11,099 bases of DNA. Source: a virus (taxonomy: Duplodnaviria; Heunggongvirae; Uroviricota; Caudoviricetes). The notes beneath the pieces are model-generated. The model had not been told where the DNA came from, ran no database searches, and saw nothing but the letters and a program-made list of their open reading frames with translations. Below, one piece after another: positions 3,242-7,484 of this stretch. A program made the position numbers and the translations under genes. The stretch covers positions 1 through 11,099 of the IMG/VR virus record IMGVR_UViG_2541047953_000001; one strand, given 5' to 3'. Position 1 is the first letter of the stretch, and the number at the start of each line of letters is the position of its first letter.

Positions 3242-3738
3242 TGTCGCCATCATTACGCAAGGCTGTAGCAGCTGCTATTGGTGGTGGGGCTGTTGCCATA
3301 GCGTCTGTGCTCATCACTGGTCCGAGTGGTGACGATGGTCTGGAAGGTGTCAGCTACATACCATATAAAGATATTGTTGGTGTATGGACTGTATGTCACG
3401 GGCATACAGGAAAAGACATCATGCTCGGTAAAACGTATACCAAAGCAGAATGCAAAGCACTCTTGAATAAAGACCTTGCCACTGTCGCCAGACAAATTAA
3501 CCCGTACATCAAAGTCGATATACCGGAAACAACGCGCGGCGCTCTTTACTCATTCGTTTACAACGTGGGTGCTGGCAATTTCAGAACATCGACGCTTCTT
3601 CGCAAAATAAACCAGGGCGATATCAAAGGCGCATGTGATCAGCTACGTCGCTGGACATATGCTGGCGGTAAGCAATGGAAAGGTCTCATGACTCGTCGTG
3701 AGATTGAGCGTGAAATCTGTTTGTGGGGTCAGCAATGA
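3241..3738 (+). CDS. rrrD: SAR endolysin, T4-lysozyme-like muramidase (R21 type), 165 aa
   Basis: The N-terminal Gly/Ala-rich weakly hydrophobic segment ([20 protein letters not shown]) is a signal-anchor-release domain. It is followed by a lysozyme catalytic region with E, D and T within [23 protein letters not shown]. The protein matches my recollection of phage 21 R / DLP12 RrrD. Confidence 0.9.
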
Positions 3739-4196
3739 ACAGAGTAACCGCGATTATCTCCGCTCTGGTTATCTGCATCATCGTCTGCCTGTCATGGGCT
3801 GTTAATCATTACCGTGATAACGCCATTACCTACAAAGCCCAGCGCGACAAAAATGTCAGAGAACTGAAGCTGGCGAACGCGGCAATTACTGACATGCAGA
3901 TGCGTCAGCGTGATGTTGCTGCGCTCGATGCAAAATACACGAAGGAGTTAGCTGATGCGAAAGCTGAAAATGATGCTCTGCGTGATGATGTTGCCGCTGG
4001 TCGTCGTCGGTTGCACATCAAAGCAGTCTGTCAGTCAGTGCGTGAAGCCACCACCGCCTCCGGCGTGGATAATGCAGCCTCCCCCCGACTGGCAGACACC
4101 GCTGAACGGGATTATTTCACCCTCAGAGAGAGGCTGATCACTATGCAAAAACAACTGGAAGGAACCCAGAAGTATATTAATGAGCAGTGCAGATAG
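3735..4196 (+). CDS. rzpD: Inner-membrane spanin Rz (i-spanin), lambda type, 153 aa
   Basis: ATG at 3735 overlaps the endolysin TGA (ATGA); the track ORF begins at an upstream GTG at 3723. N-terminal transmembrane helix ([16 protein letters not shown]) followed by a charged coiled-coil-like periplasmic domain. Nearly identical to lambda Rz as I recall it. Confidence 0.85.
3955..4137 (+). CDS. rzoD: Outer-membrane lipoprotein spanin Rz1 (o-spanin), 60 aa, embedded in the +1 frame of Rz
   Basis: Signal peptide with lipobox LVVVGC, then a proline-rich mature region ([15 protein letters not shown]). It lies wholly inside the Rz gene in a different frame, the classic Rz/Rz1 architecture. Confidence 0.8.
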
Positions 4197-4227
4197 AGTT
4201 GCCCATATCGATGGGCAACTCATGCAA

Positions 4228-4521
4228 TTATTGTGAGCAATACACACGCGCTTCCAGCGGAGTATAAATGCCTAAAGTAATAAAACCGAGCAATCCATTT
4301 ACGAATGTTTGCTGGGTTTCTGTTTTAACAACATTTTCTGCGCCGCCACAAATTTTGGCTGCATCGACAGTTTTCTTCTGCCCAATTCCAGAAACGAAGA
4401 AATGATGAGTGATGGTTTCCTTTGGTGCTACTGCTGCCGGTTTGTTTTGAACAGTAAACGTCTGTTGAGCACATCCTGTAATAAGCAGGGCCAGCGCAGT
4501 AGCGAGTAGCATTTTTTTCAT
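4228..4521 (-). CDS. borD: Bor lipoprotein (Iss/Bor serum-resistance family), 97 aa
   Basis: Signal peptide and lipobox (LLITGC). It is on the opposite strand immediately after Rz, the lambda bor position. Sequence matches my recollection of Bor. Confidence 0.85.
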   Translation of the reverse strand: MKKMLLATALALLITGCAQQTFTVQNKPAAVAPKETITHHFFVSGIGQKKTVDAAKICGGAENVVKTETQQTFVNGLLGFITLGIYTPLEARVYCSQ

Positions 4522-4811
4522 GGTGTTATTCCCGATGCTTTTTGAAGTTCGCAGAATCGTATGTGTAGAAAATTAAACAAACCCTAAACAATGAGTTGAA
4601 ATTTCATATTGTTAATATTTATTAATGTATGTCAGGTGCGATGAATCGTCATTGTATTCCCGGATTAACTATGTCCACAGCCCTGACGGGGAACTTCTCT
4701 GCGGGAGTGTCCGGGAATAATTAAAAACGATGCACACAGGGTTTAGCGCGTACACGTATTGCATTATGCCAACGCCCCGGTGCTGACACGGAAGAAACCG
4801 GACGTTATGAT

Positions 4812-5222
4812 TTAGCGTGGAAAGATTTGTGTAGTGTTCTGAATGCTCTCAGTAAATAGTAATGAATTATCAAAGGTATAGTAATATCTTTTATGTTCAT
4901 GGATATTTGTAACCCATCGGAAAACTCCTGCTTTAGCAAGATTTTCCCTGTATTGCTGAAATGTGATTTCTCTTGATTTCAACCTATCATAGGACGTTTC
5001 TATAAGATGCGTGTTTCTTGAGAATTTAACATTTACAACCTTTTTAAGTCCTTTTATTAACACAGTGTTATCGTTTTCTAACACGATGTGAATATTATCT
5101 GTGGCTAGATAGTAAATATAATGTGAGACGTTGTGACGTTTTAGTTCAGAATAAAACAATTCACAGTTTAAATCTTTTCGCACTTGATCGAATATTTCTT
5201 TAAAAATGGCAACCTGAGCCAT
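4812..5222 (-). CDS. ybcV: DUF1398-type prophage moron protein (YbcV-like), 136 aa from the Met with a strong RBS
   Basis: The minus-strand ORF is open to 5345 (177 aa) but its first codon is GTG with no RBS. The ATG at 5222-5220 is preceded by GGAAGG at about 8 nt spacing and gives 136 aa, matching my recollection of the YbcV length. The gene is visibly AT-rich relative to its flanks. Confidence 0.6.
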
Positions 5223-5507
5223 TGGTAAAACCTTCCATGTGATACGAGGGCGCGTAGTTTGCATTATCGTTTTTATCGTTTCAATCTGGTCTGACCTCTT
5301 TGTGTTTTGTTGATGATTTATGTCAAATATTAGGAATGTTTTCACTTAATAGTATTGGTTGCGTAACAAAGTGCGGTCCTGCTGGCATTCTGGAGGGAAA
5401 TACAACCGACAGATGTATGTAAGGCCAACGTGCTCAAATCTTCATACAGAAAGATTTGAAGTAATATTTTAACCGCTAGATGAAGAGCAAGCGCATGGAG
5501 CGACAAA

Positions 5508-5714
5508 ATGAATAAAGAACAATCTGCTGATGATCCCTCCGTGGATCTGATTCGTGTAAAAAATATGCTTAATAGCACCATTTCTATGAGTTACCCTGAT
5601 GTTGTAATTGCATGTATAGAACATAAGGTGTCTCTGGAAGCATTCAGAGCAATTGAGGCAGCGTTGGTGAAGCACGATAATAATATGAAGGATTATTCCC
5701 TGGTGGTTGACTGA
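5508..5714 (+). CDS. ybcW: Small prophage protein (YbcW-like), 68 aa
   Basis: ATG at 5508 with GGAG about 9 nt upstream. Its position and length correspond to the small ORF near the right end of lambda and to DLP12 ybcW. No recognisable motif. Confidence 0.6.
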
Positions 5715-5878
5715 TCACCATAACTGCTAATCATTCAAACTATTTAGCCTGTGACAGAGCCAACACGCAGTCTGTCACTGTCAGGAAAGTGGTAAAACTG
5801 CAACTCAATTACTGCAATGCCCTCGTAATTAAGTGAATTTACAATATCGTCCTGTTCGGAGGGAAGAACGCGGGATGT

Positions 5879-6073
5879 TCATTCTTCATCACTTTTAATT
5901 GATGTATATGCTCTCTTTTCTGACGTTAGTCTCCGACGGCAGGCTTCAATGACCCAGGCTGAGAAATTCCCGGACCCTTTTTGCTCAAGAGCGATGTTAA
6001 TTTGTTCAATCATTTGGTTAGGAAAGCGGATGTTGCGGGTTGTTGTTCTGCGGGTTCTGTTCTTCGTTGACAT
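5879..6073 (-). CDS. ylcI: Small basic protein (YlcI-like, DUF3950), 64 aa, possible ribbon-helix-helix DNA binder
   Basis: Minus-strand ORF ending just before cos. The N-terminus is Arg/Thr-rich and is followed by RNIRFPNQMIEQINIALEQ, which has the strand-helix pattern of Arc/MetJ/CopG-type RHH proteins. The surrounding DNA matches my recollection of the lambda right end. Confidence 0.6.
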   Translation of the reverse strand: MSTKNRTRRTTTRNIRFPNQMIEQINIALEQKGSGNFSAWVIEACRRRLTSEKRAYTSIKSDEE

Positions 6074-6244
6074 GAGGTTGCCCCGTATTCAGTGTCGCTG
6101 ATTTGTATTGTCTGAAGTTGTTTTTACGTTAAGTTGATGCAGATCAATTAATACGATACCTGCGTCATAATTGATTATTTGACGTGGTTTGATGGCCTCC
6201 ACGCACGTTGTGATATGTAGATGATAATCATTATCACTTTACGG

Positions 6245-6461
6245 GTCCTTTCCGGTGATCCGACAGGTTACGGGGCGGCGACCTCGCGGGTTTTCGCTAT
6301 TTATGAAAATTTTCCGGTTTAAGGCGTTTCCGTTCTTCTTCGTCGTAACTTAATGTTTTTATTTAAAATACCCCCTAAAAAGAAAGGAAACGACAGGTGC
6401 TGAAAACGAACTTTTGGGCCTTTGTCGTTTCCTTTCTCTGTTTTTGGCCGTGGAATGAACA
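6245..6461. other. Lambda-type cos packaging site (cosQ region, cosN with 12-nt cohesive end at 6273-6284, cosB with R sites) immediately upstream of nu1
   Basis: GATCCGACAGGTTACG|GGGCGGCGACCT|CGCGGGTTTTCGCTATTTATGAAAATTTTCCGGTTTAAGGCGTTTCCGTTCTTCTTCG... matches the joined right-end/left-end sequence of lambda as I recall it. There are a few substitutions in the cosB region, for example CGTAACTT versus lambda CATAACTT. Confidence 0.8.
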
Positions 6462-7112
6462 ATGGAAGTCAACAAAAAGCAGCTGGCTGACATTTTCGGT
6501 GCGAGTATCCGTACCATTCAGAACTGGCAGGAACAGGGAATGCCCGTTCTGCGAGGCGGTGGCAAGGGTAATGAGGTGCTTTATGACTCTGCCGCCGTTA
6601 TAAAATGGTATGCCGAAAGGGATGCTGAAATTGAGAACGAAAAGCTGCGCCGGGAGGTTGAAGAACTGCGCCAGGCCAGCGAGGCAGATCTCCAGCCAGG
6701 GACTATTGAGTACGAACGCCATCGACTTACGCGTGCGCAGGCCGACGCACAGGAACTGAAGAATGCCAGAGACTCAGCTGAAGTGGTGGAAACCGCATTC
6801 TGTACTTTCGTGCTGTCGCGGATCGCAGGTGAAATTGCCAGTATTCTCGACGGGATCCCCCTGTCGGTGCAGCGGCGTTTTCCGGAACTGGAAAACCGAC
6901 ATGTTGATTTCCTGAAACGGGATATCATCAAAGCCATGAACAAAGCAGCCGCGCTGGATGAACTGATACCCGGACCATCACGTCTGCAAACATCGACCGT
7001 CTGCGCTTTACCTTCGGTGTGCAGGCACTGGTGGAAACCACCTCAAAGGGGGACCGGAATCCGTCGGAAGTCCGCCTGCTGGTTCAGATACAGCGTAACG
7101 GTGGCTGGGTGA
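6462..7112 (+). pseudogene. nu1: Terminase small subunit Nu1, C-terminally truncated and fused out of frame to J-derived sequence
   Basis: The first ~171 codons match lambda Nu1 (MEVNKKQLADIFGASIRTIQNWQEQGMPVLRGGGKGNEV...KAMNKAAALDELIPG). After about position 6970-6975 the reading frame continues into unrelated sequence (PSRLQTSTVCALPSV...) until a TGA at 7110-7112. The terminal residues of lambda Nu1 (...LLSEYIEQSG) are missing. Confidence 0.8.
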
Positions 7113-7482
7113 CGGAAAAAGACATCACCATTAAAGGCAAAACCACCTCGCAGTATCTGGCCTCGGTGGTGGTGGATAACCTGCCGCCGCGCCCGTTCAA
7201 CATCCGGATGCGCAGGATGACGCCGGACAGCACCACAGACCAGCTGCAGAACAAAACGCTCTGGTCGTCATACACCGAAATCATCGATGTGAAACAGTGC
7301 TACCCGAACACGGCACTGGTCGGCGTGCAGGTGGACTCGGAGCAGTTCGGCAGCCAGCAGGTGAGCCGTAATTATCATCTTCGCGGGCGCATTCTGCAGG
7401 TGCCGTCGAACTATAACCCGCAGACGCGGCAATACAGCGGTATCTGGGACGGAACGTTTAAGCCGGCATACAGCAACAACCC
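6971..7482 (+). pseudogene. J: Internal fragment of tail tip/host-specificity protein J (about 170 codons), with no start and no native stop
   Basis: A different frame from nu1 encodes ...[168 protein letters not shown], which I recognise as an internal segment of lambda J. Similarity ends abruptly at about 7480 (window PCD-stop versus lambda MAWCLWD...). Confidence 0.75.
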
Positions 7483-7484
7483 AT

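Follow-up and report, generated by a model that had tools for sequence, protein, structure and literature searches.

Identity and boundaries of the bor-to-cos interval

Three small open reading frames (ORFs) lie in mixed orientation between the bor gene and cos of a lambdoid prophage, which raises the question of what they encode and whether they act together. An initial annotation had read them as one candidate set, possibly with defense or superinfection-exclusion functions, and had proposed that the ORF nearest cos could encode a small DNA-binding regulator. In the window (the whole stretch of 11,099 nucleotides that was analyzed), the ORFs occupy positions 4812 to 5345 on the minus strand, 5508 to 5714 on the plus strand, and 5879 to 6073 on the minus strand, just as that annotation had placed them. 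They are bounded on the left by the bor lipoprotein gene (4228 to 4521, minus strand; Pfam Lambda_Bor, E = 1.9e-30; lambda 46459 to 46752) and on the right by the cosN cohesive-end sequence GGGCGGCGACCT (6273 to 6284, plus strand), an exact match that occurs only once in the window.

What the initial annotation had missed is that this stretch is phage lambda's own right end. Window positions 4522 to 6272 match lambda 46753 to 48502, the last 1.75 kb of the phage, at 99.7% identity, with gene order, orientation, and distance to cosN unchanged, and the match stops at cosN, lambda 48502. Because of this identity, the bor-cos stretch is a known sequence. The gene identities that had been suggested are borne out by matches to DUF1398 (ybcV), PHROG 657 (ybcW), and DUF3950 (ylcI), and all three genes are already catalogued; they are the same genes as lambda lambdap78 and lambdap79 and those of the K-12 prophage DLP12. 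The Qin prophage carries the paralogs ydfO (of ybcV) and ynfO (of ylcI). Among 5426 complete E. coli genomes, 4820 carry the bor-to-cos region, and the median copy number is 2. Compared with the lambda and K-12 copies, the genes described here sit in a defective DLP12-like prophage, and nothing else of substance differs. To the right of cosN, the small terminase gene Nu1 (6462 to 6953, plus strand) is truncated and fused (Phage_Nu1, E = 1.7e-100, residues 1 to 164 of a 216-aa ORF), and the head and tail genes are missing.

The window holds 67 ORFs of at least 40 aa. Because chance often produces such ORFs and their presence alone is no proof, coding status was judged by substitution patterns. 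Homolog searches with ylcI and ybcW were dominated by copies of a 3.5-kb fragment of lambda that are rich in errors, and homolog diversity was therefore drawn from a 50%-clustered library and from genome contigs. By this measure, all three frames are under purifying selection. In keeping with the initial annotation, we found no published function in the literature for ybcV, ybcW, or ylcI, and a comparison of the three proteins to PADLOC-DB v2 models gave no defense or toxin signature (best E values of 0.12 for ybcV and 0.017 for ybcW, and no match for ylcI). Nothing else supported the suggested defense or superinfection-exclusion role. An Rfam scan of the window returned no RNA family.

The ybcV and ybcW genes

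ybcV is a real gene, but the 177-aa ORF as listed (4812 to 5345, minus strand, GTG start) is over-extended. The protein belongs to Pfam family DUF1398 (PF07166; E = 2.6e-46, 157 bits against a cutoff of 22) and matches PDB entry 2HH8 (YdfO) at an E value of 1.1e-71, with the match covering residues 40 to 177 of the 177-aa ORF. The gene shows 38 synonymous and 39 nonsynonymous distinct codon changes and zero stops. We rejected the GTG start because the 41-codon N-terminal extension shows 0 synonymous and 6 nonsynonymous changes, contains a PdhR box, and precedes the YdfO chain, which aligns only from residue 40. The most likely start is M42, an ATG at 5222 preceded by GGAAGG, which yields a 136-aa protein encoded at 4812 to 5222 on the minus strand, stop codon included. 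As had been noted, ybcV is AT-rich, with a GC content of 0.32 versus 0.46 for the whole window.

YbcV is ~80% identical to YdfO over all 136 aa and thus should share the YdfO fold. The YdfO structure (2HH8, DUF1398), a structural-genomics NMR structure, has no function attached. We found no hydrophobic segment, signal peptide, or membrane segment in the YbcV sequence. For this reason, and because lambdap78 is nonessential and dispensable for plaques in lambda CRISPRi, we rejected the labels that databases give this protein ("putative envelope protein" and "head protein").

ybcW (lambdap79; 5508 to 5714, plus strand) encodes an acidic protein of 68 aa, predicted to form three helices, on the strand of the lambda late transcript. 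It matches PHROG 657 (E = 7.5e-48) and no Pfam family. Its length of 68 codons is strictly kept among four copies of 79 to 100% identity, and its pN/pS of 0.38 is the lowest among the six frames; two antisense ORFs considered in its place (5342 to 5581 and 5469 to 5675, both minus strand) acquire stops, show no synonymous bias, and were rejected. An AF2 model built from the single sequence (pLDDT 62) places helices at residues 14 to 24, 29 to 39, and 43 to 62, and a fold search with this model gave no meaningful match, only alignments at an rmsd of 8 to 13 Å. In lambda CRISPRi, lambdap79 scored as essential against a literature value of nonessential, which fits with a block that would hit the co-oriented late transcript. 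YbcV would be a soluble cytoplasmic protein of the YdfO fold, and YbcW would be small, acidic, and helical; the two would be carried as host-regulated cargo that is dispensable for plaque formation.

Regulation from the prophage

The two genes diverge from a control region at 5223 to 5507, the first 123 bp of which (5223 to 5345) are the noncoding part of the annotated 177-aa ORF. The PdhR box in this region, ATCTGGTCTGACCTCTT (5284 to 5300, plus strand), is an exact copy of the published K-12 DLP12 site, with 0 copies expected by chance. In K-12, this is a PdhR SELEX site, and ybcV and ybcW mRNA levels were down 10.0- and 8.9-fold, respectively, in a pdhR mutant (PMC7660256). Hha also binds the ybcV/ybcW control region and induces ybcW (PMC2408971). 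In BL21(DE3) overexpressing T4 MotB, which is reported to alter H-NS-dependent repression, DLP12 ybcV and ybcW were up >1000-fold. On the other side of ybcW, ybcW and ylcI form a convergent excludon with overlapping transcripts in K-12. The literature thus shows all three genes to be transcribed from the prophage in E. coli K-12. A hairpin between ybcW and ylcI (5751 to 5783) was rejected as a terminator, as it lacked a T-run and had z scores of -0.04 (ylcI strand) and -2.2 (opposite strand).

Independent occurrence of the three genes

The interval from the lysis genes to cos is a slot for variable cargo: lambda carries bor-ybcV-ybcW-ylcI, PhiR63_1 and HannyBb carry csp-ynfN-gnsB-ybcW, and BP-4795 carries an array running from ant to a DUF3950 gene. 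The description of the bor-cos interval as a moron site is thus well founded. The genes are present or absent among related phages, are flanked by cassette junctions, and have GC contents of 0.32 to 0.39 versus 0.54 for Nu1; their own transcription signals are represented by the regulated transcription documented in K-12.

The idea of a single candidate set did not survive, as related phages carry ybcV, ybcW, and ylcI independently and in differing orientations. A blastn comparison of the window to a Qin-type locus (L046) found homology at 6300 to 5911 (98.5%) and 5301 to 4793 (84.5%) and none in between. The lambda-type block of 609 bp at 5302 to 5910 spans ybcW with its upstream DNA as well as the 3' end of ylcI; it takes the place of 50 bp in the Qin-type arrangement, in which ynfO and ydfO stand in tandem, co-oriented and 57 nt apart. 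Adjacency of ylcI/ynfO and ybcV/ydfO is found only in such Qin-type relatives.

Conservation and flanks of ylcI

ylcI (5879 to 6073, minus strand) encodes a basic 64-aa protein (pI 10.5) that contains RNIRFPNQMIEQINIALEQ and is probably a ribbon-helix-helix (RHH) DNA-binding protein. It belongs to the DUF3950 family (PF13132; E = 1.9e-20, 72.8 bits against a cutoff of 25) and to NCBIfam YlcI_YnfO_N (NF041551; 37.6 bits against a cutoff of 30). Codons 1 to 50 have a pN/pS of 0.13, and 24 of 29 differences from one Stx-type copy (phage 569R3) fall at third positions; the other frames over these codons were all worse or contained stops. The wider DUF3950 family is conserved to about 35 to 45% identity across Enterobacterales and Pasteurellaceae, with a pN/pS of about 0.2. 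The gene corresponds to the complement of lambda 48109 to 48303, where it is unannotated in reference record NC_001416, and it is annotated elsewhere as YlcI/YnfO family. With lambdap78 given as 177 aa in the same record, the lambda reference annotation omits one gene under strong purifying selection and over-extends another.

Upstream of ylcI, a repeat search identified a candidate operator, a 13-nt inverted repeat (ATCAATTAATACG and CGTCATAATTGAT, 6143 to 6175) that is 85% complementary and lies 70 to 100 bp from the gene. It has no motif in common with Stx-type upstream regions, and a consensus scan upstream of ylcI found no promoter-like site. In Stx/HK97-type phages that encode an 81 to 87% identical protein, the DNA upstream of the gene is unrelated, and a search for operators shared between lambda-type and Stx-type flanks found nothing above chance upstream, while the downstream flanks were nonhomologous. 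Because the upstream DNA differs completely and the predicted DNA-contacting strand is common to both copies, a simple conserved upstream auto-operator is disfavored. A 38-aa ORF between ylcI and cos, annotated in O276/E26, shows 2 synonymous and 6 nonsynonymous changes and is probably not coding.

Evidence for a probable ribbon-helix-helix fold in YlcI

The initial annotation had likened YlcI to the Arc/MetJ/CopG repressors and had called for structure prediction and fold searches. The AF2 monomer model of YlcI (pLDDT 64) has an extended coil at residues 1 to 18 and helices at 19 to 32 and 37 to 62, with the beta-strand unformed. Foldseek searches with this model gave best E values of 0.88 (PDB) and 1.0 (BFVD), neither of them significant. 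Most of the named neighbors in the two databases are RHH proteins, at an rmsd of about 2.1 to 2.6 Å and with nonsignificant E values; these include Arc, NikR, ParD2, MazE9, CopA_SO, HicB, NikA, MatP, CopG, and AmrZ. The equally small ybcW model, which served as a control, showed no RHH pattern among its fold matches.

Profile comparisons point in the same direction. By hhalign, the DUF3950 profile aligned with the Arc family at a P value of 0.00099 (probability of 22%, 23 columns), with strand and helix A in register; the P values were 0.0034 against Arc alone and 0.18 against CopG. Pfam RHH models did not match the DUF3950 members, 1 of 24 of which gave RHH_6 at an E value of 0.09, and searches of PDB sequences with YlcI or its profile found no RHH match. 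The invariant residues of the family are R16, F37, V41, and A44. Taken together, these concordant tests, individually weak and below significance, make an RHH fold likely for YlcI on the basis of sequence and modeling.

Within the RHH proteins, the closest likeness is to P22 Arc and Mnt (immI). Shared features are the small size, the basic N terminus, an N-[IL]-R-[FW]-P-x-E-[LV]-[LI] motif running in register from the strand into helix A, a YlcI model that may reflect beta-alpha-alpha topology, and a gene within or adjoining a temperate phage's late operon, some DUF3950 relatives having antirepressor genes nearby. YlcI differs from Arc/Mnt in that neither sequence searches nor Pfam models matched it significantly to the Arc family, its inter-helix loop is longer and variable, and no ant gene is found in the window. 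Type II RHH antitoxins (ParD, CopA_SO, MazE9, and the HicB C-terminal domain) are also among the structural neighbors of the model and resemble YlcI in layout, with an N-terminal core (probably RHH in YlcI) and a tail at the C terminus that is short and variable. They differ in gene context, as ylcI is followed in the window by convergent ybcW and not by a toxin gene, and DUF1398 is not a known toxin family.

Possible roles of YlcI

We consider it fairly probable that the genes between bor and cos are three separate morons of the lambda-type right end rather than one system and that YlcI is an Arc/Mnt-like RHH repressor. YlcI would form a dimer whose N-terminal beta-strand (K/R-N-I-R-F-P) contacts DNA, and it would act as a small transcriptional repressor. 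Because ylcI points against the late operon, we propose that its product would be made in the prophage state and that the gene would be silenced by transcriptional interference as Q-antiterminated late transcription runs rightward through ybcW and cos. No account of lysogen-specific ylcI expression in lambda itself was found in the papers examined. The most likely ancestral target would be its own leftward unit; we propose this because ynfO and ydfO form a tandem in the Qin type, a pair that the ybcW block splits in lambda. If this reading is right, little changes for genes that are already catalogued as y-genes in existing families (DUF1398 and DUF3950), and YlcI now has a concrete and cheaply testable prediction as an Arc-like RHH repressor.

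The Arc likeness would also fit a more specific role, which we regard as rather unlikely. YlcI could be a Mnt/Arc-type repressor of a P22 immI-like secondary immunity that silences an antirepressor (Ant, Bro, KilA-N, or Rha type) in the lysogen; lambda, DLP12, and Qin would each have lost the antirepressor and kept an orphan repressor that could act in trans on antirepressor genes carried by incoming phages or satellites. In profile comparisons, Arc gave the best match, aligned in register across the strand that would read DNA, and antirepressor genes do adjoin some DUF3950 genes. The DUF3950 gene of BP-4795 has a P22_AR_N antirepressor gene about 1 kb away, that of the L006 prophage has a KilA-N/ORF11CD3 gene about 0.5 kb away, the neighbors in satellites are AntA/AntB (L055, L061, and L079) or Rha (L083), and a survey of E. 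cloacae lists AntA/AntB and YlcI/YnfO together in cf-PICIs. However, an AntA or Rha gene lies up to about 2.4 kb downstream (E ≤ 1e-5) in only 6 of 38 divergent loci, and the window contains no antirepressor gene. The DUF3950 gene is also convergent, not divergent, with the ant-like genes, and a shared-operator search found none.

DUF3950 genes recur in two settings, the junction between lysis and packaging genes in lambdoid phages and the regulatory zone of PICI/P4-like satellites. The family joins lambdoid prophages with these satellites, which could matter for helper-satellite regulation. One satellite lineage (L005/L006) encodes a fusion protein that joins the DUF3950 domain to the DNA-binding, N-terminal part of a Terminase_2 TerS; this TerS shares 64% identity with that of the neighboring prophage. 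By analogy, this DUF3950-TerS(N) fusion might act as does Rpp of E. coli PICIs, which is likewise a small satellite DNA-binding protein tied to the helper TerS. Rpp itself was rejected as a DUF3950 relative, as it is a winged-HTH MerR-like protein of 144 to 153 aa and not an RHH or DUF3950 protein (PMC6739421); YlcI in the window differs further in having no TerS-like part. Because the family appears where lysis and packaging genes meet in Stx phages and also beside antirepressors in satellite regulatory zones, DUF3950 proteins could serve as a common means of cross-regulation among phages and between phages and satellites, for instance, by silencing the antirepressors of invaders. Under this bolder proposal, ylcI would be an overlooked, strongly conserved lambda regulator, a lysogen-made repressor of the Arc/Mnt type, and the DUF3950-TerS(N) fusion a derived packaging-interference factor; we consider it distinctly unlikely.

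It is very unlikely that ylcI/ynfO and ybcV/ydfO form a two-gene module, in which an RHH regulator or antitoxin is paired with a DUF1398 effector or toxin, possibly in abortive infection or exclusion, and which ybcW has interrupted in lambda. The Qin-type tandem is what such a module would look like, and the conserved, probably RHH core with variable C-terminal tails recalls RHH antitoxins. A database protein (P0287) even reads as a DUF3950-DUF1398 fusion, although this may be a frameshift artifact. Against this, Stx-type phages and all 38 divergent loci carry DUF3950 genes with no accompanying DUF1398 gene. The window does not have the layout of a type II toxin-antitoxin pair, since ylcI is followed by convergent ybcW, with ybcV 656 nt further on. 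No known toxin partner was found either: YbcV matches DUF1398 only, with no PADLOC defense or toxin match below an E value of 0.1, and no report of ybcV or ydfO toxicity was found in the literature.

The initial annotation had placed ylcI right against cos. A role as a DNA-binding packaging accessory that modulates terminase action or protects cos is highly improbable. DUF3950 genes do lie within about 0.2 to 0.7 kb of cos and terminase genes in two unrelated types of packaging module (Nu1/A and HNH-TerS-TerL), and the satellite fusion to TerS is in line with such a role. But nothing indicates that YlcI binds cos, given the unrelated upstream DNA in Stx/HK97-type phages, and lambda packaging has been reconstituted in vitro without a YlcI-like factor. 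ylcI in fact lies 199 bp from cosN, outside the ~200-bp cos element (cosQ, cosN, and cosB) that is sufficient for terminase recognition (PMC4669245). In addition, most of the divergent DUF3950 homologs reside in satellite regulatory zones or at chromosomal sites away from terminase genes, and moron insertion would account equally well for a position at a module junction.

That the three ORFs are decaying, functionless remnants is scarcely credible, even in a defective prophage and with lambdap78 dispensable for plaques, given the purifying selection on all three frames, the conservation of DUF3950 beyond E. coli, the prevalence of the region in complete genomes, and the documented regulated transcription.

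As a separate observation on this DLP12-like prophage, an uninterrupted 365-aa porin ORF occupies the nmpC position.

The bor-to-cos interval is the right end of a lambda-type phage

Three independently acquired accessory genes occupy this lambda-type right end, between bor (4228-4521, minus strand) and the lambda cohesive-end sequence GGGCGGCGACCT (6273-6284), with the Nu1 gene next. The initial annotation described three moron ORFs here, and all are present as described: ybcV (4812-5345, minus), ybcW (5508-5714, plus), and ylcI (5879-6073, minus). Pfam assigns ybcV to DUF1398 (E = 2.6e-46), ylcI to DUF3950 (E = 1.9e-20; NCBIfam YlcI_YnfO_N), and ybcW to no family; the PHROGs families for the three ORFs are 413, 657, and 949. 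The AT richness noted for ybcV is real (GC 0.32, versus 0.46 for the whole window).

The interval is known material, namely lambda lambdap78/79, E. coli ybcV/ybcW/ylcI, and families DUF1398 and DUF3950. Window positions 4522-6272 match the terminal 1,750 bp of lambda (46753-48502) at 99.7% identity, and this similarity breaks off at the cohesive end. In the lambda RefSeq record, the ybcV ORF is lambdap78 (47042-47575, labeled "head protein" or "putative envelope protein") and the ybcW ORF is lambdap79. No annotation for ylcI appears in that record; a tblastn match locates it on the complementary strand at lambda 48112-48303, and both phage O276 (as gp68) and E. coli have it annotated. Among 5426 complete E. 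coli genomes, 4820 contain this lambda block, with annotations of ybcV, ybcW, and a "YlcI/YnfO family protein," at a median of two sites in each genome. Our additions are a corrected ybcV start; evidence that ylcI, absent from the lambda reference annotation, is a genuine constrained gene; a ribbon-helix-helix (RHH) assignment that is reasoned but inconclusive and includes an alignment to Arc in register; the arrangement of the cassettes by comparison with the Qin prophage; and the distribution of DUF3950 across lambdoid phages and satellites.

Coding status and the start of ybcV

Because short ORFs are common by chance (the 11-kb window holds 67 of at least 40 aa), we compared substitution patterns. 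For codons 1 to 50 of ylcI, a comparison of lambda-type with Qin-type and Stx/HK97-type copies gave pS = 0.42 and pN = 0.057 (ratio, 0.13); relative to the Stx-type phage 569R3, 24 of 29 differences are at third positions. The remaining five frames had ratios of 0.35 to 4, with stops in nearly all. The 68-codon ybcW ORF is kept in three natural copies (HannyBb, PhiR63_1, and Tritos) at 79 to 91% protein identity, and its pN/pS of 0.38 is the lowest among six frames; antisense ORFs of 68 and 79 codons over ybcW either gained stops or lacked synonymous bias and were rejected. For ybcV, distinct codon changes numbered 38 synonymous and 39 nonsynonymous, with no stops. All three accessory genes are under purifying selection.

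The first 41 codons of the 177-aa ybcV ORF show 0 synonymous and 6 nonsynonymous changes and, judged by this pattern, behave as noncoding. The published PdhR box (5284-5300) lies inside this extension, the solved chain of the Qin paralog YdfO (PDB 2HH8) aligns only from residue 40, and GGAAGG precedes the ATG at 5222. For these reasons, ybcV most likely starts at this ATG and encodes 136 aa, the length annotated in K-12, and not 177.

The three genes are separate cassettes

Comparison with a Qin-type prophage copy (L046) showed homology blocks at 6300-5911 (98.5%) and 5301-4793 (84.5%), between which 609 bp of the window (5302-5910) stand in place of 50 bp of the Qin type. This segment comprises ybcW with the DNA upstream of it and, from ylcI, the final ~11 codons and the stop. 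Its left junction (5301/5302) abuts the PdhR box. YlcI residues 1 to 49 form a near-invariant core, and the C-terminal tail varies from one copy to another (lambda, Qin, BP-4795, 569R3). The Qin type has ynfO (77 aa) and ydfO in tandem on one strand with 57 nt between them. Elsewhere, PhiR63_1 and HannyBb carry ybcW without ybcV, after csp-ynfN-gnsB on the late-gene strand, Tritos has ybcV together with ybcW, and Stx-type phages have DUF3950 without either. Because the genes recur in such differing combinations, they are separate cassettes in a variable slot, and the "candidate set" of the initial annotation does not stand as one system.

Expression, regulation, and published phenotypes

Full-text literature searches yielded no assigned function for ybcV, ybcW, ylcI, ydfO, ynfO, DUF1398, DUF3950, or lambdap78/79, as had been supposed. 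Similarly, the reported lack of a known defense signature agrees with PADLOC, in which no model matched the ORFs, and Rfam gave no RNA family, including any sRNA, in the whole window. Nothing marks the interval as a defense system.

The genes are transcribed in K-12 prophages under host-factor control by PdhR, Hha, and, indirectly, H-NS. PdhR binds the ybcV/ybcW intergenic region, both mRNAs are ~10-fold lower in a pdhR mutant, and a PdhR site is also listed in the Qin ynfO/ydfO region (PMC7660256). Hha binds the ybcV/ybcW region and induces ybcW (PMC2408971). Overexpression of T4 MotB in BL21(DE3) raised ybcV and ybcW of the DLP12 prophage >1000-fold, which its authors attributed to altered H-NS-dependent repression (PMC7827196). 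Convergent ybcW/ylcI transcription forms an "excludon" in at least half of examined K-12 RNA-seq samples (PMC12288877).

In a lambda CRISPRi screen, lambdap78 was nonessential for plaques; lambdap79 scored as essential (efficiency of plating, 3e-4), although the literature has it as nonessential (PMC10695390). That paper documents polarity of dCas12a blocks, does not discuss the lambdap79 case itself, and lists bor and lambdap78, both oriented opposite to lambdap79, as nonessential. Since ybcW runs in the same direction as the late transcript, which has to traverse cos into Nu1-J, the lambdap79 score probably reflects strand-dependent polarity and not a gene requirement. YbcV, YbcW, and YlcI all lack a hydrophobic segment (Kyte-Doolittle maximum over 19 residues, <1.0); taken with the nonessential score of lambdap78, this gives no support to the "envelope" and "head" labels of ybcV.

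YlcI as a probable ribbon-helix-helix protein

YlcI is basic (pI 10.5). Its AF2 model, for which 24 diverse homologs were used, is of moderate confidence (pLDDT 64) and has the topology coil (1-18)-helix (19-32)-turn-helix (37-62), as would be expected of a modeled monomer from an obligate RHH dimer. Foldseek found no significant PDB match (best E = 0.88), but the top matches, none significant, are mostly RHH domains (StnY, HicB, MazE9, NikR, Arc, ParD2, MatP, CopA_SO, NikA, and ParB of pCXC100) at rmsd of about 2.1 to 2.6 Å over 36 to 47 columns. Informatively named matches in a viral library were overwhelmingly of RHH/CopG/NikA/HicB/AmrZ type. The ybcW model, just as small and uncertain, served as an internal control and matched only ATP-synthase and ribosome fragments, at rmsd of 8 to 13 Å.

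The Arc/MetJ/CopG likeness originally proposed is partly supported. With Arc and CopG queries exactly matching PDB entries, a 25-sequence DUF3950 profile aligned in register with Arc (TKNIRFPHELIEEI versus QFNLRWPREVLDLV; P = 0.0034) and, against an 18-sequence Arc-family profile, gave P = 0.00099 (probability, 22%); CopG and the Pfam RHH models gave nothing. Invariant or near-invariant residues (I15, R16, F17; F37, S38, W40, V41, A44, C45) lie on the predicted strand and the N terminus of helix B, which make the DNA contacts in RHH proteins. We consider it probable that YlcI has an RHH fold, with dimerization and DNA binding predicted.

Possible roles of YlcI and the DUF3950 family

The overall reading that we favor, with some reserve, is of three accessory genes in which YlcI would work as a small repressor, in the form of an Arc/Mnt-like RHH dimer. 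As ylcI opposes the late operon, YlcI would be produced in the prophage state, and collision with Q-modified late transcription would then turn its expression off. Ancestrally it would belong to a ynfO-ydfO unit, so the simplest target may be autoregulation of this leftward unit; YbcV and YbcW are, in our view, putative host-modulating cargo.

Clustered at 50%, the family is small, with 142 representatives that include many sequencing-noise variants of lambda, and it is confined to Enterobacterales and some Pasteurellaceae. Most of the more divergent members belong to P4/PICI-like elements that carry an integrase, where they sit between int/AlpA and the primase operon and point against that operon. 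It is conceivable, if unlikely, that YlcI is an immI-like repressor of antirepressors. An AntA/AntB antirepressor neighbors the DUF3950 gene in three loci checked and Rha in one, a P22_AR_N antirepressor lies about 1 kb away in BP-4795, and a KilA-N/ORF11CD3 gene lies about 0.5 kb away in the L006 prophage; AntA or Rha occurs within about 2.4 kb downstream in only 6 of 38 divergent loci. PICI Rpp, considered as a relative, consists of winged-HTH proteins and was rejected. A regulator/effector or toxin-antitoxin-like pair of YlcI with ybcV would fit the ynfO-ydfO tandem; given the Stx-type phages with DUF3950 alone, we think it improbable.

We give slightly less credence still to a cos or packaging accessory. 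In phages, the gene always separates the end of the lysis cassette from the packaging genes and is encoded on the other strand, with both Nu1/A-type terminases (199 bp from cosN in lambda) and HNH-TerS-TerL modules (BP-4795, 569R3, and PPyecE; only 41 bp to the HNH start codon). The two types have unrelated DNA upstream of the gene, with no conspicuous short motif in common. In two complete representatives (120 to 129 aa), DUF3950 is joined to the N-terminal ~50 residues of a small terminase of the Terminase_2 type. In one, P0375 (120 aa, loci L005/L006), the TerS part is 64% identical to the N terminus of the neighboring prophage TerS and 53% to the satellite's own, a resemblance by which this fusion may be a packaging-interference or redirect factor. 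These loci hold a PICI-like satellite with two DUF3950 genes (4590-5363, plus) beside lambdoid prophage HNH-TerS genes (7318-8776). That the ORFs are functionless remnants is, with all three under selection, scarcely credible.

Apart from the repressor reading, about half of the divergent loci have a 200- to 438-aa antisense ORF, lacking a Pfam match, open across the DUF3950 gene (P4-like satellites L054, L055, L058, L061, L079, L083, L085, and L087, around 3450-4860; L174, 4435-5109); in Pasteurella "phage" Pmp7 it is annotated "transcriptional repressor." The pN/pS of about 0.2 for the divergent DUF3950 frame, versus 0.32 to 0.36 for the antisense ORF, favors the former, and there may be dual coding.

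The surrounding prophage and lambda copies in databases

The whole window is a defective DLP12-like prophage, ordered Q, porin ORF, S/R/Rz/Rz1, bor, ybcV-ylcI interval, and cos. The porin ORF (1355-2452, minus; 365 aa, uninterrupted) occupies the nmpC position of DLP12 and is called "porin" in matching genomes; the region upstream (2400-2850) is very AT-rich (GC 0.29 to 0.30). The cosN sequence is retained. The Nu1 ORF (6462-7112) matches Phage_Nu1 (Pfam) over 164 residues, beyond which its sequence is unrelated; head and tail genes A to I are missing, and J/tail-fiber fragments follow (7019-9431). Positions 7480-8620 are GC-rich (0.60 to 0.63) and of low complexity, with long ORFs open on both strands (plus, 324 aa, R/P/Q-rich; minus, 355 aa, A/D-rich); matching genomes annotate a prophage tail-fiber N-terminal domain protein there.

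Homology searches for genes of the interval are swamped by thousands of error-laden copies of a ~3.5-kb lambda right-end fragment in public protein and genome collections (for example, proteins P0001-P0240, loci L011-L049, and MW057783, "Campylobacter phage CJLB-4"). Filed under such unrelated names as Kitasatospora, Cohnella, Pseudomonas, Streptomyces, S. aureus, and a plant, these copies look like sequencing control or spike-in DNA.
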